From Trichlorobacter lovleyi SZ (GTDB taxonomy: Bacteria > Desulfobacterota > Desulfuromonadia > Geobacterales > Pseudopelobacteraceae): DNA of 32,000 nucleotides. A model generated the notes under the pieces. That model made no database searches and was not told the DNA's origin. It saw only the letters and a program-made list of their open reading frames with translations. The stretch spans positions 1,860,001 through 1,892,000 of the forward strand of contig NC_010814.1 in the NCBI RefSeq assembly GCF_000020385.1. The letters run 5' to 3'. Shown in pieces: positions 10,148 through 27,558 of this stretch. Position numbers and translations under genes: made by a program. Each line of letters opens with the position of its first letter. Within the stretch, counting starts at the first letter, position 1.

Positions 10148-11098
10148 TTAGAGTTGTGCTGCCTGGTTTGAGATGGCTTCTTTCATCTCTTTAATCTTAT
10201 TGGCACTGGCCAGCAGTTTTGAACCTTTTTCTATTGCAGTAAGCAGTTCCTGCAGTTTTTCCGGCTCATTGAGCGCAGATGCTCCACCAATGTTCATTAA
10301 TTCCTTTTCTGCCAGTGTCCTCCCGAGCTTGCCGATGAACTGATTGGCCAGGTCAATGATTGCAGTTTCAAGGTCGGCTGGAGTAATTTTTGCGGGAATG
10401 GCCGCTGGCCCTGAAGCCGGTGCGGATGATACTACCGGAGCGGTGGCAAAGATGTTACCCGATGATGCCTCCCAGAGTGAGCGGATATCAACCAGTCCTG
10501 CCAGGTCAAGCACGAAACCATCGTTTTCGGCAAGTACCCGCAGATCGACGCGGGCTCCAGGCAGACCGGCAATCTGCTGAACCTCGCCGGCTGAGGTTTC
10601 AATGGCGCTGGAGGCATCATGGAAGAAGCCGACTGTTGCACCGTTGCGATAAAAAATCAGCCCGGCCCGTTCAGGAGTATAAATTTTGAGCGTGGCTGTC
10701 ATTTGTTCAGTCTTGATCCGGTCAAGCAGTGCCTTGAAATCGATCAGTTTGATTTCCTGGCTGTCAATGGTAGCCTGCCCACCTGTTAACGCCATCACTG
10801 CCAGGGTAATGTCCTTTGAAAGTGCATACACACTAAAGGTGCCGCTGGAGGCAAGCAGCATCAACTCTACCAGCGCTTGCAGGGCTGCTTGTTCCTTGAT
10901 CTCTTTGTCCTCTCGGTGCACAATGGCGTTTACCAGCTTGCCTTCGTCATACACCAGGGCGCAGTCAGCTGATGGAAAGTCAAACATGGCGCACCCGGTC
11001 AGTTTGCCGTTTTTAAGCTTTTCCAATGCTTCTGGGAGTTGCAACTTTGAGATCGGGACATTCTCGGCCAGCGGGTTTCCTTTTGGCAGCAGAAACAT
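10148..11098 (-). CDS. Cytoplasmic protein with two tandem DUF4388/PATAN-like repeats, a Pro/Ala/Ser linker and a C-terminal helical domain
   Basis: I chose the start at MFLLPKGN (ATG = complement of 11096-11098, with GAGGGA upstream); the track ORF extends to 11152. The two repeats are LPEALEKLKNGKLTGCAMFDFPSADCALVYDEGKLVNA and FKALLDRIKTEQMTATLKIYTPERAGLIFYRNGATVGF. Both follow the DUF4388 pattern seen in the 26236-27558 protein. Confidence 0.72.
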   Translation of the reverse strand: MFLLPKGNPLAENVPISKLQLPEALEKLKNGKLTGCAMFDFPSADCALVYDEGKLVNAIVHREDKEIKEQAALQALVELMLLASSGTFSVYALSKDITLAVMALTGGQATIDSQEIKLIDFKALLDRIKTEQMTATLKIYTPERAGLIFYRNGATVGFFHDASSAIETSAGEVQQIAGLPGARVDLRVLAENDGFVLDLAGLVDIRSLWEASSGNIFATAPVVSSAPASGPAAIPAKITPADLETAIIDLANQFIGKLGRTLAEKELMNIGGASALNEPEKLQELLTAIEKGSKLLASANKIKEMKEAISNQAAQL

Positions 11099-11287
11099 AA
11101 TGGGGATCCCTCGATGTGGAGTGGCAGGGAAGTTCCCTGCGAAGTGCCTCATTTAGCAGCAGTCCCGACAGCAGATGTCAGGCAATGCTGGGTATTGTAA
11201 CTAATGAATTGCTCCTGTCAAGCTCTGTGCCACAAAAATGTTTGTTTTTCTTAACATAACACTGTTTCCTAATTATGGTATTTTCTG

Positions 11288-13732: not shown

Positions 13733-13775
13733 TAAATTACAGTTAATACACGTGCGTTTCCAGGTGCAAACTCAG

Positions 13776-15197
13776 ATGCCGACAACCCATTTGATGGATG
13801 AAATACTGATCGTCGAAGATGATCGCTTTTTCCGGGAGCTCTATGCCGACCTCCTGAGGCAGGCGGGCTATAGTGTCACCACAGCCTGTTCCGGTGAAGA
13901 GGCGACCGAGCAGCTGGCTTGTTCCCGCTTCGGCCTGGTGGTGACAGACCTGACCATGCCCGGCATTTCCGGTTTGGAACTGTTGGTCAAGATAAAGTCT
14001 CAAGATCCCTCGATTGATGTTATTCTGGTAACTGCCAACGCCGATCTGGAGTCAGCTCTTTTTTCTCTCAAGCATGGTGCTCGAGATTTTTTATTAAAGC
14101 CGATCAATTCCGATGAGCTCTTGCATGCCGTACGACTCTGCATGGAACAACGTCGTCTGCTTGATGAGAACGTCGAGTTGCGCAACATGCTGGGCCTCCT
14201 GCAGACCAGCCAGACCCTGTCCAGTTGTCTGGACCTGGAGGGGGTCTGTCACCTCGCGGTTGATGCGCTGGCCCGTGAGGCCGGTGTGAGTCGCGGCATT
14301 GGTATGGTGCAGTTGGAAGGTGAGTTTGTTATCAAAGAACTCAAAGGGCTCGATGCTGCAACCGGTTCATTACTGGACAGGCTGCTGGCCTCTTCCTATC
14401 GCAAACGGGTTTCCCGTAAAGGGCAGCCGATCCGGATATTGCTGCCGGCAGGGCACGAAGAGCTTGATCAAGCCGACCTCAGGGAGGCAATTCTTTTCCC
14501 TCTCACCATCAGAAGCAGCTGTCCCGGCATGGTGATCCTCCTGAATGATCCCAACCAGATAGTGCCACCCATCAAGAATGAGCGTAATATCAACTTTCTT
14601 GAAGAGCATGCTGCCAGAGCCCTGGACAATGCCCTGCGTTTCACCTCAACCAGAGATCTGCTTTATATCGATGAGTTGTCCGGTCTGTTCAACTACCGCT
14701 ACCTGAAGGTTGCCCTGGAACGTGAAATAAAGCGGGCTGACCGCTACTCCACTCAGTTGTCGGTAGTGTTTCTTGATCTGGATAATTTTAAAGGGGTGAA
14801 CGATACCTATGGTCATCTGGTGGGCAGTAACCTGCTCAAGGAGCTGGGAGCACTCCTGAAAAAGTCGGTCCGTGAGGTTGATGTGGTGATCCGCTACGGC
14901 GGCGATGAGTATACTATTATACTGGTGGAAACCGGGGCTGAAACGGCTCATTGTGTCGGTGAGCGTATCCGGCGGATGATTGAAAAACACAGCTTTCTTT
15001 CCCTGGAGGGCTATCAGATTCAATTGACTGCCAGTCTGGGACTGGCCTGTTACCCGGAAGACACCACGGGACTTGAGGAACTGCTTTCAATGGCCGACAA
15101 GGCTATGTATGCCGGCAAGGCCTCGGGAAAAAACTGTGTTTACCGCATTGTCAGCCCGCTGGCTGGCGGTGGAGTACTGCATAAGGAGCAACGATGA
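13776..15197 (+). CDS. Response-regulator receiver + central GAF-like region + GGDEF diguanylate cyclase domain
   Basis: The REC domain reads ILIVEDD...VVTDLTMPG...LLKP. The GGDEF domain reads DELSGLFNYRY...FLDLDNFKGVND.YGH..G...L, with the active-site variant GGDEY (14898-14912) and the RxxD I-site REVD (14871-14882). I chose the ATG at 13776; the track ORF starts at a GTG at 13752. Confidence 0.9.
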   Translation: MPTTHLMDEILIVEDDRFFRELYADLLRQAGYSVTTACSGEEATEQLACSRFGLVVTDLTMPGISGLELLVKIKSQDPSIDVILVTANADLESALFSLKHGARDFLLKPINSDELLHAVRLCMEQRRLLDENVELRNMLGLLQTSQTLSSCLDLEGVCHLAVDALAREAGVSRGIGMVQLEGEFVIKELKGLDAATGSLLDRLLASSYRKRVSRKGQPIRILLPAGHEELDQADLREAILFPLTIRSSCPGMVILLNDPNQIVPPIKNERNINFLEEHAARALDNALRFTSTRDLLYIDELSGLFNYRYLKVALEREIKRADRYSTQLSVVFLDLDNFKGVNDTYGHLVGSNLLKELGALLKKSVREVDVVIRYGGDEYTIILVETGAETAHCVGERIRRMIEKHSFLSLEGYQIQLTASLGLACYPEDTTGLEELLSMADKAMYAGKASGKNCVYRIVSPLAGGGVLHKEQR

Positions 15198-16453
15198 GCA
15201 TAACCGGTATCAAGGGCTTTAATGATCTTTTACCCGCAGAATCAGGTCTTTGGCAGTTTATTGAACAAACGGCCCGACAGGTCTTTGCACGCTACGGTTT
15301 TAACGAGATCCGTGTGCCGATCGTTGAAAAAACCGAGCTGTTTTGCCGCTCAATTGGTGATACCACCGATATTGTTGAAAAGGAGATGTATACCTTTATG
15401 GACAAGGGGGGCAGCAGTCTGACCCTGCGGCCTGAGGGAACGGCCAGTGTGATGCGGGCATTGATCGAGCATAAATTGTACGCCCTGGATAGTATCAACA
15501 AGCTCTACTATATGGGCCCCATGTTTCGCCACGAACGTCCCCAGAAAGGGCGTTACCGCCAGTTCCATCAGATTGGAGCCGAGGTGACCGGTGCTGCGGA
15601 CCCGCTGATTGATGCCCAGGTGCTGTTGATGGTCAGTCGTCTGTTTCAGGAGTTCGGGTTGACCGAGCCGCGGCTGCAGATCAATTCATTGGGATGCCCG
15701 GCCTGCCGCCCGGCCTATCGGCAAGCCCTGGTGGCCTTTCTGGCGGAACGTCAGGAAGCGCTTTGTGAAGACTGTCGTCGGCGTCAGGGCACCAATCCCT
15801 TGCGGGCACTGGATTGCAAGGTTCCCGGATGTATCGAGGCCACGCAAGGTGCCCCTGCCATGGTCGAACACCTCTGTAACGAGTGTGATCAGCATTTCAG
15901 CATGGTCCAAAACTACCTGACAGCCGCAGAAGTGCCGTTCAGCCTCAATCCCCGTATGGTCAGAGGACTCGATTACTACACCCGTACCACCTTTGAGCTG
16001 GTAACCGGCCTGCTGGGTGCTCAGTCAGCAGTGGCAGCCGGCGGGCGGTATGATGGCCTGGTGGAGCAGCTTGGCGGGCCTGCCGTGCCTGGTATCGGTT
16101 TTGCCCTTGGCGTGGAGCGGGTGGCATTGTTGCTTGGCGACCGCAGTTTTGAAAAAACGCCGGATCTGTTCATTGCTGTCATGGGTGATGCTGCCCGGAC
16201 AGCAGGTTTTCGTCTGATGGCAGCCCTGCAGGATCAAGGATTCTGGGTAGAAACTGATTGTGAGGGGAAAAGTCTGAAAAGTCAGATGCGGCGGGCTGAC
16301 AAGCTGAAATCCCGTTACAGTATTGTGTTGGGGGATACCGAGCTGGTTGCCGGCAGCGGGACGTTAAAGCGGATGGCGGACGGCAATCAGCAGCCGGTAC
16401 ATCTTGAAGCGGCAACTATTGCAGCAGCTATCACAGGAGGTGGGCAGACATGA
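15194..16453 (+). CDS. hisS: Histidine--tRNA ligase
   Basis: 419 aa. Class II motifs are present: LRPEGTA, MFRHERPQKGRYRQFHQ, GGGRYDGL and GFALGVER. ATGA overlaps occur at both ends (15194-15197 and 16450-16453). Confidence 0.95.
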   Translation: MSITGIKGFNDLLPAESGLWQFIEQTARQVFARYGFNEIRVPIVEKTELFCRSIGDTTDIVEKEMYTFMDKGGSSLTLRPEGTASVMRALIEHKLYALDSINKLYYMGPMFRHERPQKGRYRQFHQIGAEVTGAADPLIDAQVLLMVSRLFQEFGLTEPRLQINSLGCPACRPAYRQALVAFLAERQEALCEDCRRRQGTNPLRALDCKVPGCIEATQGAPAMVEHLCNECDQHFSMVQNYLTAAEVPFSLNPRMVRGLDYYTRTTFELVTGLLGAQSAVAAGGRYDGLVEQLGGPAVPGIGFALGVERVALLLGDRSFEKTPDLFIAVMGDAARTAGFRLMAALQDQGFWVETDCEGKSLKSQMRRADKLKSRYSIVLGDTELVAGSGTLKRMADGNQQPVHLEAATIAAAITGGGQT

Positions 16454-18207
16454 ATTACCCGATCTGGTTTGTTCCGGCGTTTGGTGGCGGCCTGCTGATC
16501 GCACTGGTGGCTATTGTGCATGTCTTTGTCTCCCATTTTGCGGTGGGGGGCGGGCTCTATCTGGTGCTGGCCGAGCGGAAGGCGATCAAGGAAAAAAGCC
16601 AGGCAATCATGGACTTTGTCAAAAAGCATACAAAGTTCTTTATGCTGCTGACCATGGTCTTTGGCGGTCTGACCGGTGTTGCCATCTGGTTTGTGATCTC
16701 TCTGATCCACCCCGCTGCCACCTCACTGCTGATCCATACCTTTGTGTTTGGCTGGGCAGCTGAATGGGTCTTTTTTCTGGTGGAGATTGTGGCCCTGTTT
16801 GTCTACTTCTATGCCTTTGGCAAGATGGATGACCGGACCCACCAGACCATCGGCTGGATCTATTTCGGTGCAGCCTGGATGAGTCTGTTTCTGATTAACG
16901 GCATCATCGACTTTATGCTGACCCCCGGTAGCTGGATCAGCACCAGCAATTTCTGGTCCGGCTTTTTCAACCCGACCTTCTGGCCCTCACTGTTCTTTCG
17001 CAGCTTTATGAGTTTTATGCTGGCCGGTTGCTACGGTTTTCTGACAGCCACCTTTCTGAAGGATGAAGAGGCCAGACACCGGATGATCCGCTACTCGGGT
17101 GTCTGGGCACTGGTGTCATTGATCCTGTCGGTGCCGGCAGGCTGGTGGTATATCTCGGTGCTGCCCGACAAGGCGCGCAGCCTTGTCGGAGGGGCCTCCC
17201 CAACCATTACCCGTGCAGCTACTGTAGGCGCCTTTTCCTTGGCCGCCTTGGCCGGCCTGGTGATGGTCCTGATTCTGCTGCATCCCAGGGCACGTACCCG
17301 GACGTTGACGGTGGTGGTTATGGTTGCTGCCATGGGCTATATGGGAGCCTTTGAATGGACCCGTGAGGCGGCCCGTCGTCCCTACGTTATTAACGAAGTG
17401 ATGTACTCCAACGGCATTCTCAAGAGCGAGGTGGAGCGGATCAACCGGGAAGGGTTTCTGAAAAATGCCAGGTGGGTACAGCAGAAAGAGATAACGGAAG
17501 CCAATCAGCTTGAGGCAGGTCGTGAACTGTTTCTGCATCAGTGCTTTGCCTGCCATACCGTAGGTGGCTTCAACAACGATATCATCAGGCGCACCAAAAA
17601 CATGAGCTACGGCGCCATGCGCAAATACCTGACAACCATTCATGAAAAACGTTATTTCATGCCTCCCTTTGTCGGAAACGAGACGGAGTTGAAGGCGTTG
17701 GCCGCCTACCTGACCGCCGGGCTGCATAAAAAACCGTTGGCGGATGATGGCGGCGCTGCTGGTGATCGCGGCACTGTTCTGTACGAAGAGAACTGTGCTG
17801 CCTGCCATAGTGCCGAAAGTATCAAACCTAAGATGAAGGGTTGGGAACTGGCAAAGATACGTGCCGCACTGGATAAACTGCCTGCCCTTAACCCCGCCAT
17901 GCCGGAATATAATGCACCTGCGCCTGACAAAGATGCAGTGGCCGGCTATCTGTTCAGTCTGAATAACCCCGGCGCCGATTCTTCTGCCAAGGATCAGGGG
18001 GCCACCTTGTACGAGGAAAATTGCGCAGCCTGCCACAGTCTTGATCAGGTCAAGCCAAAGATGGCCGGTTGGCCAAAGAAGAAGATTCGTTCTGCCCTTG
18101 ATAAGCTGTCGGCGCTCAATCCAGCCATGCCGGATTATTCGGGAACCGCTGTTGAAAAAGATTTTCTGGCTGACTATCTGGCCAAACACACAGGAGGTGC
18201 CCAATGA
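16450..18207 (+). CDS. Cytochrome bd subunit I (CydA)-like polytopic membrane domain fused to three class-I cytochrome c domains
   Basis: 585 aa. Residues 1-305 contain about 8-9 helices, including HVFVSHF and AAEWVFFLVEIVALFVYFYAFGKMD, which resembles the CydA glutamate helix (FFLES.F.GL.FFGW). CxxCH motifs start at aa 365 (CFACH), 449 and 525 (both CAACH), each with a downstream MP methionine. The bd-family assignment is made by eye only. Confidence 0.7.
   Translation: MNYPIWFVPAFGGGLLIALVAIVHVFVSHFAVGGGLYLVLAERKAIKEKSQAIMDFVKKHTKFFMLLTMVFGGLTGVAIWFVISLIHPAATSLLIHTFVFGWAAEWVFFLVEIVALFVYFYAFGKMDDRTHQTIGWIYFGAAWMSLFLINGIIDFMLTPGSWISTSNFWSGFFNPTFWPSLFFRSFMSFMLAGCYGFLTATFLKDEEARHRMIRYSGVWALVSLILSVPAGWWYISVLPDKARSLVGGASPTITRAATVGAFSLAALAGLVMVLILLHPRARTRTLTVVVMVAAMGYMGAFEWTREAARRPYVINEVMYSNGILKSEVERINREGFLKNARWVQQKEITEANQLEAGRELFLHQCFACHTVGGFNNDIIRRTKNMSYGAMRKYLTTIHEKRYFMPPFVGNETELKALAAYLTAGLHKKPLADDGGAAGDRGTVLYEENCAACHSAESIKPKMKGWELAKIRAALDKLPALNPAMPEYNAPAPDKDAVAGYLFSLNNPGADSSAKDQGATLYEENCAACHSLDQVKPKMAGWPKKKIRSALDKLSALNPAMPDYSGTAVEKDFLADYLAKHTGGAQ
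17770..18186 (+). repeat. Tandem intragenic duplication encoding two ~63-aa cytochrome c modules
   Basis: The first copy, 17770-17958, encodes GTVLYEENCAACHSAESIKPKMKGWELAKIRAALDKLPALNPAMPEY.... The second, 17998-18186, encodes GATLYEENCAACHSLDQVKPKMAGWPKKKIRSALDKLSALNPAMPDY.... They are separated by a short Gly/Ser/Asp linker. Confidence 0.85.
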
Positions 18208-19271
18208 GTCCGGCAAGCCTGATTCCCGTTGCTGACACCTTAACCGCCCCGAATGGCTGGTTTCAGTTTTTTCTAATGCTGACTTTTCCCCTGCACCTGT
18301 TTGCCATGAATGCCATGCTGGGGGCCGGACTGGTAGCCTTTATCAGCCATCTGTATCCAGGACGGGCATACCATGAGCTTTCCCATCAATTGGCCAAGGC
18401 GTTGCCGTTTCTCGTTGCTTTTACCATCAATCTGGGGGTGGCCCCGTTGTTGTTTGTCAACGTTATTTACGGTCATCTGCTGTACTCAAGCACCGTATTA
18501 ATGGGACTGTATTGGCTTGCGGTGATTCCGATCCTGATTGTTGCCTATTATCTGACCTATATCTATGACTTCAGTTTTAGAAAGCTGGGTAATCTGGCCA
18601 TGTTCGTACTGCTGGCAGTGTTGGCGCTGTTGCTGACAGTCGGCTTTATCTTTTCCAACAATATGAGCATGATGATCGCTCCAGCCAGCTGGAGTCGCTG
18701 GTTTACCACTCCTGGCGGTACCCTGCTGAATCTGGCTGACCCAACCTTGATGCCTCGCTATCTGCATATGATCACCGGCTCGCTCGCTGTGGGCGGCCTG
18801 TTTACCGCGTTGTATTCAGCGACACTGTTGAAGTCTACCCCCGAAGTCTCCAAGGCGGGCCGGAAACTGGGTATGCAGCTTTTTACATGGTTGACGCTGT
18901 TGCAACTTGGCGTCGGAACCTGGTTTCTACTGTCTCTCCCCAAGGCAACCATGCTTCGGTTCATGGGGGGAGGTCCTATTGCAACAGCCTTGCTGGTAAT
19001 CGGTGTGCTGTTGGCTGTGGCAACGCTGCTAACCGGTTTCAAGCAGCTGGTCCTGCCTACTGTCTGGCTGACCCTGCCGTTGGTCTATGTCATGTCATTT
19101 ATGCGTGATGTTGTTCGAGGCAACTTCTTGGCCCCCTATTTTAACCCGACCACTGTGCCGGTACAGATACAGTGGTCACCGTTAATCTTTTTCCTGGTGA
19201 CCCTGGCGCTGGGGATTGGACTGGTCGCGTGGATGCTTATTAGATTAATAAATACTAAAAAAGCCTGTTAA
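18204..19271 (+). CDS. Polytopic membrane protein (about 9 helices); possible CydB-like partner subunit
   Basis: 355 aa, ATGA-overlapped with the upstream gene (18204-18207). I count nine hydrophobic segments by eye. The CydB-like suggestion rests only on size, topology and position, with no diagnostic motif. Confidence 0.6.
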   Translation: MSPASLIPVADTLTAPNGWFQFFLMLTFPLHLFAMNAMLGAGLVAFISHLYPGRAYHELSHQLAKALPFLVAFTINLGVAPLLFVNVIYGHLLYSSTVLMGLYWLAVIPILIVAYYLTYIYDFSFRKLGNLAMFVLLAVLALLLTVGFIFSNNMSMMIAPASWSRWFTTPGGTLLNLADPTLMPRYLHMITGSLAVGGLFTALYSATLLKSTPEVSKAGRKLGMQLFTWLTLLQLGVGTWFLLSLPKATMLRFMGGGPIATALLVIGVLLAVATLLTGFKQLVLPTVWLTLPLVYVMSFMRDVVRGNFLAPYFNPTTVPVQIQWSPLIFFLVTLALGIGLVAWMLIRLINTKKAC

Positions 19272-19310
19272 AACGGACTTTAATGGTCTTTTGTCGCTGT
19301 ATACAGATTG

Positions 19311-19342
19311 TTGACATCAAGATATAGATATGTTCTTATAAA
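19311..19342 (+). promoter_or_regulatory. Weak candidate promoter upstream of the octahaem cytochrome gene
   Basis: TTGACA lies at 19311-19316. Downstream there are only imperfect -10 options: TCTTAT with a 17-nt spacer, or TATAAA with a 20-nt spacer. An AGATAT AGATAT direct repeat sits in the spacer. Confidence 0.2.
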
Positions 19343-19416
19343 GTGATTTTGTTATCTGCCATGCTCGGCAACAGGTGCCGGGCTCACTATACGCAGGACA
19401 ACGAAAGGGGAAGGGT

Positions 19417-20883
19417 ATGAAGGGTTTTAAAGGAATGGTGGTGATGTTGACCGCTGCTCTGGTTCTGGTTTCGTTCCAGGCCTTTGCCGGTCCGGATCAC
19501 ACTGAGTTCGTCAAAGGGCCGTTCAAAAAGGGCCAGGATGTCACCAAGGTCTGTCTGGAATGCCATGAAAAGCAAGCCGCTGACGTGATGAAGACCGCTC
19601 ACTGGAAGTGGGAAGGTACTCCGAACCATGTCAAGGGTATGGAGAAGAGCACAAAGACCTTTGGTAAGAAGAACATGATCAACAACTTCTGTACCACGGT
19701 TTTCCCCGGTCCTGACGGTATTGCCCATGAATCCTGCAGCAAGTGCCATGCCGGTTACGGCTGGACCCGTTCAAAATTTGATTTTAACGACAAGACCCGT
19801 GTTGACTGTCTGGTCTGCCATGCCCAGAAAGGCAACTATGCCCGCGCCGGTGTTGGCGCAGATGTTGACACCAAGGCCATGGAAAAAGGTTCCATGAACC
19901 TTGAACTGGCAGCTCAAAGTGTTGGCAAACCCAGCCTGAAAAACTGTGGTGTTTGTCACTTCTACGGCGGCGGCGGTGATGCCGTCAAGGTGCCGGGCCT
20001 GGATTCAACCCTTGAAGCTGCTCCAAAAGAGCAGGATGTGCATATGGCTAAGAAGGAGAAGGGTGGCGCAGGCCTGCTTTGCCAGGATTGCCACAAGACC
20101 AAGGATCATGCCATTGCCGGTCGTTCCAGCCAGATGGCTCACTATGAAGCCAAGGTTGAGTGTACTGACTGTCACAGCGGTGCCAAGGCTCCTCACCAGA
20201 AATCAAAGAACAAGGCTATCCTGGACAAGCACACCGCCTCTGTGGCCTGCCAGACCTGCCACATTCCTACTATTTCCCGTGGTCAAGCAACCAAGACCAT
20301 GTGGAACTGGTCTGATGTCGGCAAGAGCATCAAGGCAGAAGAAGAGTTTGATCGTGAGACTTTTGCCAAGCACAAGGGCACCTTCAAGTACAACATGAAT
20401 TACGTTCCTACCTATGCCTGGTATAATGGCCAGATCGAGCGTTATATGCTGGGCGACAAGATCAAGGATCCGTCCAAGCCGGTCAACATCACCAAGCCTG
20501 CTGGTGACATCAAGGACAAGACTGCCAAGATTTATCCGTACAAGTTCTACACCGGTACCCAGCCGATGGACAGCAAGTTCAAGTACCTGAATACCTTCCA
20601 GCAGTACAAGGAGCTGTGGGTGAACTTTGACTGGGAAAAGGCACTGGTAAACGGTGCAAAGAGCCCTGAAGGTCTGCCGTACAGCGGTAAGTACCAGTTT
20701 GTGAAAACCCAGTCCTGGCTGAGTGCTGGTCATGAGGTTGCTCCGAAAGAGCAGGCACTGCAGTGCGGTGAGTGCCACATGGGTGCCAAGCGGATGGACT
20801 GGGCTGCTTTGGGCTACAAAGGCGACCCAATGCAGGTTGGCGGCCGTTCGGTAGAAAAGGCTGCAAAGAAGAAAAAGAAGTAA
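19417..20883 (+). CDS. Periplasmic octahaem c-type cytochrome (Otr/tetrathionate-reductase-like octahaem family suspected)
   Basis: I chose the start MKGFKGMVVMLTAALVLVSFQAFA|GP, which gives a signal peptide and has GAAAGGGGAAGGG upstream. Eight CxxCH motifs are present: CLECH, CSKCH, CLVCH, CGVCH, CQDCH, CTDCH, CQTCH and CGECH. At about 490 aa with 8 haems, the size fits Otr-type enzymes. The family call is from memory and was not searched. Confidence 0.85.
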   Translation: MKGFKGMVVMLTAALVLVSFQAFAGPDHTEFVKGPFKKGQDVTKVCLECHEKQAADVMKTAHWKWEGTPNHVKGMEKSTKTFGKKNMINNFCTTVFPGPDGIAHESCSKCHAGYGWTRSKFDFNDKTRVDCLVCHAQKGNYARAGVGADVDTKAMEKGSMNLELAAQSVGKPSLKNCGVCHFYGGGGDAVKVPGLDSTLEAAPKEQDVHMAKKEKGGAGLLCQDCHKTKDHAIAGRSSQMAHYEAKVECTDCHSGAKAPHQKSKNKAILDKHTASVACQTCHIPTISRGQATKTMWNWSDVGKSIKAEEEFDRETFAKHKGTFKYNMNYVPTYAWYNGQIERYMLGDKIKDPSKPVNITKPAGDIKDKTAKIYPYKFYTGTQPMDSKFKYLNTFQQYKELWVNFDWEKALVNGAKSPEGLPYSGKYQFVKTQSWLSAGHEVAPKEQALQCGECHMGAKRMDWAALGYKGDPMQVGGRSVEKAAKKKKK

Positions 20884-20940: not shown

Positions 20941-20977
20941 CGTGCTAGAGTTTTTTACAGCAAAATGGGAGGCGGCG

Positions 20978-21394
20978 ATGGATAAAAACATACTTGCCGT
21001 AATGGTCATGATTATCCTGTTAGGTACCGGCTGTGCGGCAAAAAGGCCGGTACTCTATCCCAATGAGTTGTATCGGTCTGGAGGTGCGGAAAAGGCACGT
21101 CAGGAGATTGATAGCTGCCTGAAGCTGGCTGAAGAAGCTGATACACAAGGGCGTCTGGCTGAAGAGGTTGCGGCAAAAACCGGTAAATCGGCCCTTGTCG
21201 GTGGTGCGACCGGCGCCGTTGTCGGTGCCATTACCGGATCTGCCCTACGTGGAGGTCTGATCGGTGCTGCAGCCGGCGGCACTGCCGCATTGGTGAGCAG
21301 CGCTATAAAAACGCCTGAAGACTCTCCTGTTTTCAGGCGGTTCGTTGAGATCTGCCTGTATGAGAAGGGCTATCAGGTTCTGGGCTGGCAGTGA
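20978..21394 (+). CDS. Small lipoprotein with a glycine-zipper segment
   Basis: I chose the start MDKNILAVMVMIILLGTGC, which gives a lipobox Cys and has GGGAGGCGG as SD. The Gly-zipper reads GGATGAVVGAITGSALRGGLIGAAAGGTAAL, and the C-terminus is CLYEKGYQVLGWQ. The track ORF begins at 20900. Confidence 0.72.
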   Translation: MDKNILAVMVMIILLGTGCAAKRPVLYPNELYRSGGAEKARQEIDSCLKLAEEADTQGRLAEEVAAKTGKSALVGGATGAVVGAITGSALRGGLIGAAAGGTAALVSSAIKTPEDSPVFRRFVEICLYEKGYQVLGWQ

Positions 21395-21406
21395 TACTGC
21401 GCTATT

Positions 21407-22552
21407 CTATTGGCCTTGGGAGGGGGTTCTCCCGATCTTCTTGAGATATTCGCCAAATCCCTTTTCAAAGATCAGTTCAATCTCATTTTTTGGCCGGTTT
21501 TCAGCATAGTTTTTGAAATACACAGCCATGCTGATCAGGGCGATGATGACAACGCTAACGGTGAGAATGGTTTTAATCAACAGCTTCAGCCGTTGCTCTG
21601 GGGGGACGTCAGGCTGAGGTGCTTCGGGGCCGCTACGGAAGAGATAATGTTCTCGCATCTGCCTGATACGTTTTAATTGGACATTTGAGATGTAGCTGAC
21701 AATGGCATCCCGGTCCCGTTCTTCAACAAACTTGAACTTGAGCCCGGTGTTGTAACTGGTGCGATTGAACTGCTTGCTGGCAGCATAGTTTTCATTGGCA
21801 AAGGCAACAATACAAACAGCATCAATTATCTGCGGCTCAGGTTCACTGGGTAGATAAATTTCGAGCGGGACCAGGGTGTTCTCTTCAAATTTGTGGTGTA
21901 AGAGCATCCGGACCCCGCCGCCACTGATGTTTGCAGCCAGCGGGATGACGTCATCCCAACTGTGATCCCTGCTGTCATCCTCGCCTGGATCAGGTTGTTC
22001 AAGGCCTTCTCCGCTGTCCTCCCAGCTGCCTTCATCGCCCAGCTCTTCCGACGGCAGTTCTTCGTTCTGAGGGGCTTTGCGCAGTCGCTCCCAGGGCTTT
22101 TTCGCCTGTTGTCTCCGTTCCATTTCCGCTGCAAGACGTGCCTCCCGTTTCTCTTTCCAGGCAGCCTTCAACTTGACTTCGCTCTGCTCACTGCTGATGA
22201 AATATTTGATCGGTAGAAAGGCGTCAATCCGGTAGAATTCCCGCAACTCAGAGGAGACGATTTCACCGATCAGCCGCAGCAGCACTTCACGTTTGAAACC
22301 TTCGGTAACAATTATGGCACGGCATGAGTAGCCGGAAACCTCATTGCCGGTCCGGATATCCAGGATGGTGCCTACTAATAGTTTAACACCTGCAGGAAGT
22401 GTGTCGCGGGAGAGCTGGAGAGAAATCAGGTCTTCATCAATGGAATGGATGATGGCCCAGTCGTGAAACGTGTCGCCGCCGGGTACCGGGATGCCGACAT
22501 TGACCTTCAACCCGACAGGAAAGTGCGCAAGGTATTGATCAAAATCGCTCAT
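21407..22552 (-). CDS. PilZ-domain c-di-GMP receptor candidate with a long charged insertion and a C-terminal membrane anchor
   Basis: 381 aa. The RxxxR motif is REFYR (22229-22243). The (D/N)xSxxG motif is NISGGG (21914-21931). A TM helix LLIKTILTVSVVIIALISMAVYF lies near the C-terminus. Confidence 0.78.
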   Translation of the reverse strand: MSDFDQYLAHFPVGLKVNVGIPVPGGDTFHDWAIIHSIDEDLISLQLSRDTLPAGVKLLVGTILDIRTGNEVSGYSCRAIIVTEGFKREVLLRLIGEIVSSELREFYRIDAFLPIKYFISSEQSEVKLKAAWKEKREARLAAEMERRQQAKKPWERLRKAPQNEELPSEELGDEGSWEDSGEGLEQPDPGEDDSRDHSWDDVIPLAANISGGGVRMLLHHKFEENTLVPLEIYLPSEPEPQIIDAVCIVAFANENYAASKQFNRTSYNTGLKFKFVEERDRDAIVSYISNVQLKRIRQMREHYLFRSGPEAPQPDVPPEQRLKLLIKTILTVSVVIIALISMAVYFKNYAENRPKNEIELIFEKGFGEYLKKIGRTPSQGQ

Positions 22553-25286: not shown

Positions 25287-25315
25287 ATACGATTTGATTG
25301 GTTTCAGGAGTTTAC

Positions 25316-26209
25316 ATGCCCATGAGTTTGACCCCGCTGAGCACTGCCCAGGCCATCATGAAGACCTTCAAAGTCCTGCCAACGGTACCGGCTGCGGCTT
25401 CACGTGCCATACAGTTGTTGAATGAATCGGAAGTTGATATGGGGGAGGTAGCTGATATCCTGCTGGCAGACCAGGTCATGGCCGCCCGGGTGATCAGGAT
25501 TGTCAATTCGCCGCTCTACAAGCTGCTGCAGGAGATTGACTCTGTACGTCAGGCCCTGATCTATCTGGGGCCACAGCGGGTGTTTGAAATCATCCTGACC
25601 TCATGTTTTCTCGAACTTACGGACTCACAGAGCCGGACTCCGTTAAAGATGCAGTCCTGCTGGGAACATGCCTTTGGCGTTGGACTGGTTGCCAAAAAAC
25701 TTGCCTCCTTCAGTGATGACATTCCCCAGGACCAGGCCTATATTGCCGGGATTTTGCATGATATCGGAGAAGTAATACTCAGCCAGCAGCGTCGTGACGA
25801 ATTCACCCGTGTGCTGGTGCTGGCACGTGAGCGGGAGTTGGATCTCTATCAGGCTGAGATGAAGGTTTTTGGCACCAGCCATGCTGAAGTAGGAGCCCTG
25901 TTGGCTGAGCAATGGCGCTTTCCTGAAGTGTATATTGATGTCATCAGGAACCACCATGGGCTGCAGAGTGGCAACATGTCTACGTTGACCCGCCTTGTCC
26001 ATATTGCGGATCAGATCTGCCTGAATGTCGGATTCTGTTGTAAGTATGGAAATGCCGAGCAGCGCGAAGGGCAGGTCTATGGTATTGATATGCTGGACCT
26101 GGAACGGCAGTTGAGCAGCCTGGGGGTCAAGCGGCTGTCGGACTTCCGTGCGTCGTTGGCGGAGCTGGTGCAGCAGGTCAAGCAGACCGTTGAGTCGATC
26201 TATGGCTGA
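25316..26209 (+). CDS. HDOD-domain signalling protein
   Basis: I chose the start MPMSLTPL, with CAGGAG 5 nt upstream. HDOD hallmarks are present: LPTVPAAASRAIQLLN....D..EVADIL..D..MAARVIRIVNSPLY, GILHDIGEVIL and HAEVGALLAEQWRFPE..IDVIRNHH. Confidence 0.85.
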   Translation: MPMSLTPLSTAQAIMKTFKVLPTVPAAASRAIQLLNESEVDMGEVADILLADQVMAARVIRIVNSPLYKLLQEIDSVRQALIYLGPQRVFEIILTSCFLELTDSQSRTPLKMQSCWEHAFGVGLVAKKLASFSDDIPQDQAYIAGILHDIGEVILSQQRRDEFTRVLVLARERELDLYQAEMKVFGTSHAEVGALLAEQWRFPEVYIDVIRNHHGLQSGNMSTLTRLVHIADQICLNVGFCCKYGNAEQREGQVYGIDMLDLERQLSSLGVKRLSDFRASLAELVQQVKQTVESIYG

Positions 26210-26215
26210 TGCCCG

Positions 26216-26242
26216 GGGATGACGGGGATCCCCGTCTATCCC
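26216..26242. terminator. GC-rich palindromic hairpin between the two convergent HDOD genes
   Basis: GACGGGGATCCCCGTC (26221-26236) is a perfect 16-bp palindrome, extended by GGGAT/ATCCC. It overlaps the stop codon of the minus-strand gene. There is no clear U-tract, so terminator function is uncertain. Confidence 0.4.
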
Positions 26243-27558
26243 GCTGAAAGGATGCTGTCAATTTCCCGGTCAAGCTCTTCAAGGTGGTCAGCAAACGGCG
26301 CTGCCCATTCACCAGAGTGTGCTGCCAGTGCAGAGACCACATCATCCGGCAGCGGTGATTCGTTCTTTGCCAGCTGATCGGAAAGATAAATTATCTGAAC
26401 CAGTTGCTGATAAGCCTCGGCTTTTTCCGGCAGATGGTGGTTTTTGATAACTTCTTGTATTTCGTCAGAAAAATTCCATTTTTTTGCCACCAGTGCCCCC
26501 AGCGTGGTGTGGTGTACCCGCATCAGGTAATCCCGTTTTTCCTTGTCGAGATCGTACTTTGAGAGCATTTCCAGCATTACGATCCAGCCGATGTCATGCA
26601 GTAGTCCGCAGACAAATGCCTGATCGTGGTTTCCCCCCATGTCCCGTGTCAGTTGTTTGGCAATCATGCCTACCATCATGGAGTGGTGCAGAATCTGCTC
26701 GATCTCTTCGGCATGTTGCGGGGAGAAACCGCTGAGCGCATTAACGGTAACAATGCTCATCAATGATTTCAGGCCCATGTACACCACGGCATCGCGCAGG
26801 GTGCCAACCTTGCCGCGCCTGCCGTAAAAGGGCGAGTTGGAGACCCGCAGGATTTTTGAAACCAGCAGGGGGTCTGTCAGGCACTCAATAATCTGGTCAA
26901 TGGTGAGTCCCGGGCTGTTGATCTTGTCCATCAAGAGCTGCATTTCGGTGGGCAGTGGCGGGATGTCCAGGGCTCCTTTACGGATCAGCTCGTAAACCTC
27001 GTTCAGTACCGGGTCAAGGCTTGAAAGTTCGATCAGGCGGGCCTCATCAATCTGGACGGTAGAGTCCAGCAGAACCTTGGTCGGTTTGATATTGACCGGG
27101 CTGCAGAGGACGGCAGCCGGGAGAAAATCGCTGAAACGGAACGAACCGGTTCGCCAGGCCAGGGAGGTTGTCAGCGATTGTTCAGCCAAGGTGGAGATCA
27201 GCCCCCCCAGGCGCTCAAGCGGGATGCCTTCTTCACTCGAGAGCAGTCCGATAAACGAGATCCCCAACTCCTCTGACTGTTTGAGAGCCTCCATGATCCG
27301 CTCCATGGAGAGACCGAACTGATCCCGGATCGCGTCATAGAGCTGCTGTCCCTCCTGATCACACCAGACAAAGATCAGTCTTCCGTCCTGAAAGAAAAAA
27401 CGACGGGTATACTCATCATTGGTGGCAATCAATGTCCCTGATTTCTTGGAGCCTTCAATCCACTGAATCAGGTCGCTGAGTGACATCAGGCTCAGGCTGC
27501 CCTCAATAGATCGGGTGAGCCGCTCATCATTCTGATTGCTGAAGGTGGGCTGCAGCAT
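26236..27558 (-). CDS. DUF4388 (PATAN-like) + HDOD two-domain signalling protein
   Basis: 440 aa. The N-terminus IEGSLSLMSLSDLIQWIEGSKKSGTLIATNDEYTRRFFFQDGRLIFV fits DUF4388. The C-terminal half has ILRVSNSPFYG, GLLHDIGWIVML and HTTLGALVAKKWNFSDEIQEVIKNHH, which are HDOD hallmarks. GAGG lies 8 nt upstream of the ATG. Confidence 0.85.
   Translation of the reverse strand: MLQPTFSNQNDERLTRSIEGSLSLMSLSDLIQWIEGSKKSGTLIATNDEYTRRFFFQDGRLIFVWCDQEGQQLYDAIRDQFGLSMERIMEALKQSEELGISFIGLLSSEEGIPLERLGGLISTLAEQSLTTSLAWRTGSFRFSDFLPAAVLCSPVNIKPTKVLLDSTVQIDEARLIELSSLDPVLNEVYELIRKGALDIPPLPTEMQLLMDKINSPGLTIDQIIECLTDPLLVSKILRVSNSPFYGRRGKVGTLRDAVVYMGLKSLMSIVTVNALSGFSPQHAEEIEQILHHSMMVGMIAKQLTRDMGGNHDQAFVCGLLHDIGWIVMLEMLSKYDLDKEKRDYLMRVHHTTLGALVAKKWNFSDEIQEVIKNHHLPEKAEAYQQLVQIIYLSDQLAKNESPLPDDVVSALAAHSGEWAAPFADHLEELDREIDSILSAG

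Follow-up and report, generated by a model that had tools for sequence, protein, structure and literature searches.

This analysis concerns a three-gene locus of Trichlorobacter lovleyi SZ that lies in a window of 32,000 nucleotides (contig NC_010814.1, positions 1,860,001 to 1,892,000; the window is the whole stretch of DNA that was analysed, and all coordinates are counted from its first letter). Three co-directional open reading frames (ORFs) follow one another here, of which the first (P1) encodes a CydA-like membrane domain fused to three cytochrome c domains, the second (P2) a nine-helix membrane protein and the third (P3, otr) an octahaem cytochrome c (Table 1). An ORF check of the window placed all three exactly where an earlier note, made from the letters of the sequence, had placed them, including the ATGA overlap of the P2 start codon with the P1 stop codon and the gap of 145 bp in front of otr. 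The assignment of the three genes to known families, OR-C1a and OR-C1b of the cytochrome bd superfamily for P1 and P2, and Otr for P3, is secure. Together, P1 and P2 probably form a bd-type reductase that would take its electrons from periplasmic cytochrome c and would act independently of its octahaem neighbour.

Table 1. Features of the OR-C1-otr locus and their coordinates in the window
Feature	Coordinates	Strand	Description
hisS	15194..16453	+	context, outside the enzyme
P1 (OR-C1a), 585 aa	16450..18207	+	CydA-like 8-helix membrane domain (aa 1 to ~320) and three class I cytochrome c domains
Codons of H24 (16519-16521), E105 (16762-16764) and E112 (16783-16785)	within 16519..16785	+	high-spin haem ligand, proton-channel glutamates
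Motif E302-W-T-R-E306-A-A-R309-R-P311-Y	17353..17385	+	after helix 8; resembles CydA W441..E445..R448-Q-P450-W
Haem c domain 1	17482..17739	+	CxxCH at aa 365; probable Met ligand M404 in MPPF
Haem c domain 2	17755..17979	+	CxxCH at aa 449; M484 in NPAMP
Haem c domain 3	17983..18204	+	CxxCH at aa 525; M560
P2 (OR-C1b), 355 aa	18204..19271	+	9-helix bd-fold subunit, paralogue of the P1 membrane domain
P2-otr spacer, 145 bp	19272-19416		
Short hairpin (5 pairs) followed by TTTTGT	19275..19295	+	directly after the P2 stop; possible weak terminator
Block TTGACAT..ATATGTTyTTATAmA	19311..19344	+	candidate promoter/operator, from the spacer alignment of 10 Otr-linked loci
P3 (otr), 488 aa	19417..20883	+	Otr-family octahaem cytochrome c; signal peptide, 8 CxxCH

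Family assignment and architecture of the membrane subunits

The bd superfamily has been divided into the qOR, OR-C and OR-N branches by Murali, Gennis and Hemp 2021 (bioRxiv 10.1101/2021.01.16.426971), who defined OR-C1a as an eight-helix CydA homologue that has no quinol site, bears C-terminal haem c motifs (one to eight sites across the family) and is encoded next to a paralogue, OR-C1b. In their Table S6, the OR-C1a reference has H24, E105, E112, S145 and H131 at the CydA positions H19, E99, E107, S140 and H126, Y119/Y121 in place of F114/F116, V77/W80 in place of L71/E74 and F183 in place of H186, and it has no equivalent of M393 and E445 (Murali et al. 2021). Every one of the listed OR-C1a residues is found in P1 under the very same number, and these markers are invariant in the P1 alignments of the present study; P1 is therefore a typical OR-C1a. 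The agreement extends to the C-terminal CxxCH motifs, to the adjacent paralogous subunit and to the host range (Desulfuromonadota, Desulfobacterota and Acidobacteriota). No essential difference was seen, P1 having three haem c sites and P2 none, and the overlap with hisS and the downstream otr represent clade-specific context. OR-C accounted for 532 hits in 24,706 genomes of GTDB, some of them, according to Table S7, in genera of Bacteroidota such as Chitinophaga, Sphingobacterium and Hydrotalea (Murali et al. 2021). A literature search found no experimental study of OR-C and no use of the name OR-C1 outside Murali et al. 2021, in keeping with the remark of the earlier note that bd clades with c-type extensions have no demonstrated function.

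What places P1 in the bd superfamily? It scores 40.1 bits on Pfam PF01654 (Cyt_bd_oxida_I; cut-off 26.2, E 2.3e-10), over residues 17-233 only, which correspond to positions 6-232 of 418 in the profile. When a profile of P1 homologues was run against PDB sequences, Geobacillus CydA was recovered (5doq_A, E 1.4e-6), and the alignment pairs H24, E105 and E112 with H21, E101 and E108, the residues that correspond to H19, E99 and E107 of E. coli CydA; the haem-ligand helix 1 and di-glutamate helix 3 that the earlier note had recognised by eye are thus borne out. A hidden Markov model (HMM) of 78 P1 homologues scored 34.3 bits against the N-terminal half of Geobacillus CydA. Comparison of the P1 and P2 profiles with single E. 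coli CydA and CydB sequences (hhalign) gave non-significant scores, and the homology of P1 and P2 was therefore established through comparison of their profiles with each other, through the Geobacillus fragment and through structure prediction. In the AlphaFold2 model of P1 (predicted local distance difference test, pLDDT, 80.4), eight transmembrane helices precede three small helical domains, in agreement with the lower figure of an earlier estimate of eight to nine helices, and a Foldseek search with this model returned CydA chains as its top 10 PDB matches and CydB chains as the next ten.

H24, E105 and E112 are invariant in alignments of 13, 46 and 78 P1 homologues; H131 and S145 (E. coli CydA H126 and S140), E302, E306, R309 and P311 are likewise conserved to at least 97% among the 78, which come from three phyla. 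The spacing of E105 and E112 is the six-residue one of the Geobacillus type. At the position of CydA H186, by contrast, P1 has F183, and with no equivalent of M393 either, both ligands of haem b558 are gone; the Q-loop is missing too, the loop between helices 6 and 7 measuring only about 18 residues. Of the CydA features that the earlier note had listed for scoring, the equivalents of His19, Glu99 and Glu107 are hence present, and those of His186, Met393 and the Q-loop are not. P1 keeps helices 1-8, and three periplasmic class I cytochrome c domains replace helix 9; the Lys/Arg-rich odd-numbered loops are consistent, at the level of sequence, with an N-out, C-out topology.

After helix 8 comes a short motif (Table 1) in which HMMER sets P1 295-317 (GAFEWTREAARRPYVINEV) on E. 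coli CydA 434-456 (AGWFVAEYGRQPWAIGEV), with a local score that is not significant alone, pairing E306 with the haem b595 ligand E445, R309 with R448 and P311 with P450. We infer that this motif may be the equivalent of CydA E445..R448.P450, which would be an addition to the published description of OR-C1a. Two further histidines of P1 are conserved to at least 97%, namely H29 (16534-16536), five residues past H24 in helix 1, and H96 (16735-16737) at the periplasmic start of helix 3, and both may ligate extra haem.

Set against canonical bd oxidases (E. coli CydAB; Geobacillus 5DOQ; qOR1-qOR3), the locus presents a mixture. Shared are the fold of both subunits, the haem-ligand His of helix 1, the di-glutamate helix 3, the H126/S140 equivalents and a GRQPW-like motif after helix 8. 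The differences are that P1 has no Q-loop, no b558 site and no helix 9 but does have covalent haem c domains, and that subunit II is a CydA-like paralogue.

The C-terminal part of P1 contains CxxCH motifs at residues 365, 449 and 525, each in one of three PF13442 cytochrome c domains (E 1.6e-30), in agreement with the three periplasmic modules predicted earlier. These domains also match TIGR00782 (ccoP), and CcoP chains were the next best after CydA in the PDB sequence search with the P1 profile. Domain 3 duplicates domain 2 in tandem (17755-18204; 64% amino-acid and 68% DNA identity). Because a Met residue, in an MPPF or NPAMP motif, follows each CxxCH invariantly in the alignments of P1 homologues, His/Met ligation of the three haems is suggested. 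The number of motifs varies among relatives, with three in 58, two in 17 and four in 3 of the 78. A close parallel is CcoP of the cbb3 oxidases, which likewise brings tandem class I c domains, as an entry for electrons from periplasmic cytochromes, to a terminal oxidase and is the best sequence match of the P1 c domains; in P1, however, the core is of the bd and not of the haem-copper type, and the c domains sit on the catalytic subunit itself.

P2 is OR-C1b, a diverged paralogue of the P1 membrane domain that takes the place of CydB. Simple searches do not reveal this: P2 lacks CxxCH motifs and is matched by no Pfam or NCBIfam model, Pfam and NCBIfam scans found a bd-family match (PF02322 or PF01654) in none of 80 members of its family, the comparison with E. 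coli CydB (hhalign) gave a probability of 0.7%, and the P2 profile stayed at noise level against PDB sequences. P2 belongs in the bd superfamily because the P1 and P2 family profiles match each other (hhalign probability 96.5%, E 9.4e-10, P1 16-252 on P2 25-261), because the P2 HMM scores 15.2 bits against the N-terminal half of Geobacillus CydA, with H31 on H21, and because of its predicted structure. The AlphaFold2 model (pLDDT 96.8, predicted template modelling score 0.92) has nine long helices, and its 12 best Foldseek matches in the PDB are all cytochrome bd chains (query-normalised template modelling score 0.44-0.63), CydA chains being matched as well as CydB chains. Profile searches of the two proteins against the bd subunit families, as the earlier note had proposed, hence succeeded for P1 and failed for P2, and its description of P2 was right about the nine helices and, in its hint of a CydB-like size, pointed to a bd-type subunit, but was not right about the want of any recognisable motif, H31, F84, Y115, H188, G238, M297 and R301 being invariant in 80 diverse homologues.

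H188 of P2 lies in DPTLMPRYLH, which aligns with NPAMPTKVAH186 of Geobacillus CydA and with NPTFWPSLFF183 of P1; P2 thus keeps a His at both the H19 and the H186 position, and it is P1 that lost the latter. M297 was considered as an equivalent of CydA M393 and rejected, since it lies in helix 8 and not in helix 7 and its local motif differs. The P2 family comprises 1,341 clusters at 50% identity, and as no Pfam or NCBIfam model covers it, OR-C1b is annotated as hypothetical everywhere. In one P2 homologue of 560 aa (P0212, L163 1526-3208) the membrane domain is fused with a Tll0287-like one (PF11845), so that subunit II, too, gains extra periplasmic modules in some lineages.

Otr and the neighbourhood of the OR-C1 genes

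P3, as the earlier note had it, is a signal-bearing protein (an N-terminal hydrophobic segment) with eight CxxCH motifs, and the search against family models resolves its identity: it scores 535 bits against TIGR04315, the octahaem cytochrome of the tetrathionate reductase family (cut-off 375), and aligns end to end with Shewanella oneidensis Otr (PDB 1SP3; 381 bits, E 5e-113). K84, in the motif GKKNxINNFC, is invariant in 16 homologues and aligns with Lys56 of 1SP3, which we take to be the lysine ligand of the catalytic haem, placed outside a CxxCK motif. P3 was also considered as the octahaem nitrite reductase of Trichlorobacter ammonificans or T. lovleyi (TaNiR, NrfA-3) and rejected in favour of the Otr family; TaNiR has been described as an octahaem nitrite reductase (ONR) grouping with the NrfA type, and its gene adjoins nap genes. 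Shewanella Otr can use tetrathionate, nitrite and hydroxylamine as substrates of reduction in vitro; its interaction partner is the soluble cytochrome STC, itself reduced by CymA, and no dedicated membrane partner is known (PMC4484225). At least 54% of the species of Desulfuromonadia have homologues of Otr/PpcF (PMC11492766).

How firmly is otr tied to its two upstream neighbours? A scan of one genome per species gave at least 589 OR-C1 loci, the best 80 of which were compared together with the window (81 loci in all), and 80 metagenomic Otr loci of 38-96% identity were examined from the other side. The best 80 OR-C1 loci come from Geobacteraceae/Trichlorobacter, Desulfuromonas, Desulfocapsaceae and other Desulfobulbales, Holophagae and Aminicenantes, the closest being a Trichlorobacter metagenome-assembled genome with 84% identity and full synteny. 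Candidates for a cultured carrier are Geobacter sp. AOG2, Desulfuromonas sp. KJ2020, Desulfofustis glycolicus DSM 9705 and Desulfopila sp. IMCC35008. P2 lies directly 3' of P1 in about 70 of the 80, that is, in essentially every locus with downstream sequence, and the pairing is obligate across Desulfuromonadota, Desulfobulbales and Acidobacteriota; the other genes that flank the pair are unrelated and variable. The gene for Otr, by contrast, is found 3' of P2 in 10 of the 81 loci, the window counted, and is absent from that position in the remaining 71. Seen from the Otr side, OR-C1 lies upstream in four of the 80 loci, which are the four closest (at least 78% identity), and nearby in none of the 76 loci of at most 69% identity. 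Of the three-gene block whose conservation in relatives the earlier note had proposed to test, the P1-P2 part is accordingly conserved and the otr part is linked to it only among close relatives.

A neighbour-joining tree built from the membrane domains of P1 gathers every Otr-linked locus in one 18-member Geobacteraceae/Trichlorobacter clade, basal members included, and six loci of this clade (L005, L009, L010, L013, L015 and L016) do not have the linkage; the juxtaposition of OR-C1 and otr hence had a single origin, followed by several losses. Among the 80 + 80 loci there was no independent recurrence of the linkage of the kind that argues for functional coupling. Otr is a lineage-specific neighbour of OR-C1, not a demonstrated partner.

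The spacer between P2 and otr bears on the same point. An alignment of ten linked loci revealed a conserved promoter-like block (Table 1), in which a promoter scan found no canonical sigma-70 match, and a conserved ribosome-binding site (GAAAGGGGAA) upstream of the ATG at 19417 with which P3 starts; a promoter or operator of its own is therefore probable for otr. The hairpin directly after P2 has two pairs with compensatory change and a folding energy of -3.5 kcal/mol over the ten linked loci (RNAalifold); a terminator scan did not pick it up and found no strong terminator between P2 and otr. An Rfam scan of the spacer gave nothing above threshold, and the fold of the otr 5' untranslated region was no more stable than those of shuffled sequences (z -0.37). 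In the otr leader (19360-19390) an 8-bp GC-rich hairpin, GCUCGGCA..UGCCGGGC, is present in most linked loci.

Outside the Geobacteraceae clade Otr keeps different company, a second Otr copy with YeeE/YedE-like and ArsR proteins, or molybdopterin oxidoreductases, taking the place of OR-C1. There (L085-L161, where neighbour families were assigned by reading the sequences and not by a Pfam scan) otr genes often form tandem pairs with two YeeE/YedE-like proteins after them and an ArsR-type regulator before them, and others adjoin a molybdopterin oxidoreductase and a 4Fe-4S subunit; these neighbours suggest a sulfur-compound context. In Desulfobulbales/Desulfocapsaceae (L036-L075), P1-P2 often lies a few genes away from a short sigma-54 activator, PspF-like by eye and with no receiver domain, and a small NifU-like membrane protein is also encoded near the pair.

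At its upstream end, the locus is joined to a gene of quite another kind. The start of P1 is overlapped by the stop codon of hisS (ATGA, 16450), and the stop of a receiver-GGDEF gene (13752-15197) overlaps in turn the hisS start (15194), so that a tRNA synthetase gene is chained to that of a respiratory enzyme. The hisS-P1 junction recurs in L001-L003, L005, L007, L012, L020, L082-L084 and L102, and the model proposed below offers no explanation for this translational overlap. On the 3' side of otr lie genes for a glycine-zipper lipoprotein (20975-21394) and, on the minus strand, a PilZN1-PilZ protein (21407-22552), both of which are co-conserved with otr in L001, L003, L007, L083 and L084. 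The remaining genes of the window have housekeeping or signalling roles (nrdR, the rib operon, queH, ackA, ptsP, comEC, receiver-GGDEF and hisS, and further an aminotransferase, coaD, rsmD, HDOD proteins and hrpB), and its whole gene content includes no other respiratory gene. It is rich in genes for cyclic di-GMP and HDOD/DUF4388 signalling (10148-11152, 13752-15197, 25298-26209 and 26236-27558).

Proposed electron path and competing explanations

Taken together, these features make it somewhat more probable than not that P1-P2 is a bd-type reductase that depends on periplasmic cytochrome c, has O2 as its most likely substrate and works independently of Otr. Electrons from the periplasmic cytochrome c pool would enter through the three fused haems c of P1 and pass to a bd-type haem pair held by helices 1-4 and 8, where O2, or possibly another small oxidant, would be reduced with protons drawn from the cytoplasm along an E112/H131/S145 pathway. 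P1-P2 would thereby be a cytochrome c oxidase with a bd-type scaffold, of use to these anaerobes for O2 scavenging. Otr, for its part, would be a separate periplasmic reductase, probably expressed from its own promoter and probably fed by the general periplasmic cytochrome pool. Since the catalytic and proton-channel residues and E306..R309.P311 are all kept, the pattern is the one to be expected of a terminal reductase and not of a dehydrogenase. A cytochrome c donor and O2 reduction were proposed for OR-C independently, and from sequence alone, by Murali et al. 2021.

Several observations weigh against this reading. The reduction of O2 is deduced from conserved residues, and the haem complement of OR-C (b, d and their number) is likewise a prediction. 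The equation of E306 with E445 depends on a short motif that does not align significantly by itself, and E445 is listed as absent in OR-C1a (Murali et al. 2021). H29 and H96 of P1 are conserved and have no counterpart in canonical CydA, and the invariant H31, H188 and M297 of P2 could bind additional haem and permit other electron paths. As to the independence from Otr, there is no strong terminator between P2 and otr, hence co-expression by read-through is possible, and P1, P2 and otr stayed together despite a changed upstream context in three loci (L006, L008 and L014); this retained trio is the only point that favours a link between OR-C1 and Otr.

Could the pair be the electron donor of Otr after all? 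According to the earlier note, the bd-like/cytochrome c fusion would oxidise quinol on behalf of the octahaem reductase, i.e. P1-P2 would oxidise menaquinol and its haem c domains would relay the electrons to Otr, the bd scaffold having become a dedicated quinol dehydrogenase. This would make sense of otr being placed directly downstream in 10 genome loci and four metagenome loci, of the persistence of the trio across the upstream change, of the His of P2 at the CydA H186 position, and of the want of any NrfH/CymA-, NrfD- or NrfCD-type quinol dehydrogenase gene in the window, which a gene scan confirmed as the earlier note had stated it. It founders primarily on the membrane domain: the strongest argument against a quinol-dehydrogenase role is that the quinol site is missing, P1 having neither the Q-loop nor the b558 ligands, and that E112/H131/S145 are strictly conserved in three phyla, these residues of a proton channel facing the cytoplasm being needless if protons were released to the periplasm. 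The haem c domains, moreover, resemble the His/Met class I type of CcoP, and domains of this type are usually of high potential and poor donors to low-potential bis-His multihaem chains. Add to this that the linkage is of single phylogenetic origin and missing at most OR-C1 loci as well as at all the more distant Otr loci, that a promoter-like block is conserved before otr, and that Shewanella Otr pairs with soluble STC (PMC4484225), which weakens the very premise that Otr needs a dedicated membrane donor, and the proposal becomes highly improbable. A less demanding version, in which OR-C1 and Otr are separate but adjacent for a shared purpose, as co-regulated or partly co-transcribed periplasmic sinks that detoxify O2, nitrite and hydroxylamine through the cytochrome c pool, is in keeping with an ancestral linkage that was kept in most of the 18-member clade even after upstream rearrangement, and the missing strong terminator after P2; both proteins face the periplasm and draw on the same cytochrome c maturation and electron supply, and Otr does reduce nitrite and hydroxylamine in vitro (PMC4484225). 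The linkage was nevertheless lost in six members of that clade and never recurs outside it, and the shared purpose is for these reasons considered unlikely.

There remains the question of the substrate. NO and H2O2 are further substrates of canonical bd oxidases, and OR-C1 might reduce one of these rather than O2, or might use haems in both subunits to connect the periplasmic cytochromes with the menaquinone pool as a path for electrons. Such a role would give meaning to the invariant residues that the O2-reductase model leaves unexplained (H31, H188 and M297 of P2, H29 and H96 of P1), and the carriers of OR-C1 are mostly strict anaerobes. No signature of a quinone site was identified, however, the conserved set of residues is that of the O2-reducing site of canonical bd oxidases, and OR-C also occurs in the Bacteroidota genera named above. 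Chitinophaga, Sphingobacterium and Hydrotalea lead an aerobic life. A substrate or function other than O2 reduction is thus given little credence, and the same low rating applies to a more specific conjecture, in which both OR-C1 subunits would carry cofactors, a bd-type haem pair in P1 and haem bound by H31, H188 and M297 in P2, and the complex of the Geobacteraceae clade would be no O2 reductase but a menaquinol:cytochrome c oxidoreductase on a bd scaffold, or a reversible gate that feeds Otr and the periplasmic haem pool. The reading preferred here remains that of a cytochrome c-dependent O2 reductase.

Implications for the OR-C family

The OR-C1 branch is already known, having been described in 2021 and so far not studied experimentally, and the window locus adds one more member to it; no new principle emerges from a locus that is a clean and typical example of its family. 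As leads for biochemistry, it offers the H19- and H186-type histidines of P2, the E445..R448.P450-like motif of P1 and a second subunit that no Pfam or NCBIfam model describes. The family itself is far from marginal: the P1 membrane domain is matched by more than 3,900 protein clusters at 90% identity, and OR-C is widespread, mainly in anaerobic Desulfuromonadota, Desulfobacterota and Acidobacteriota, and so far uncharacterised. Some of the carriers have no haem-copper oxidases, as has been reported for T. lovleyi (PMC3403914). If OR-C enzymes are indeed cytochrome c-dependent bd-type O2 reductases, the family would constitute a further class of cytochrome c oxidase and would likely provide metal- and sulfur-respiring anaerobes with a route for scavenging O2.

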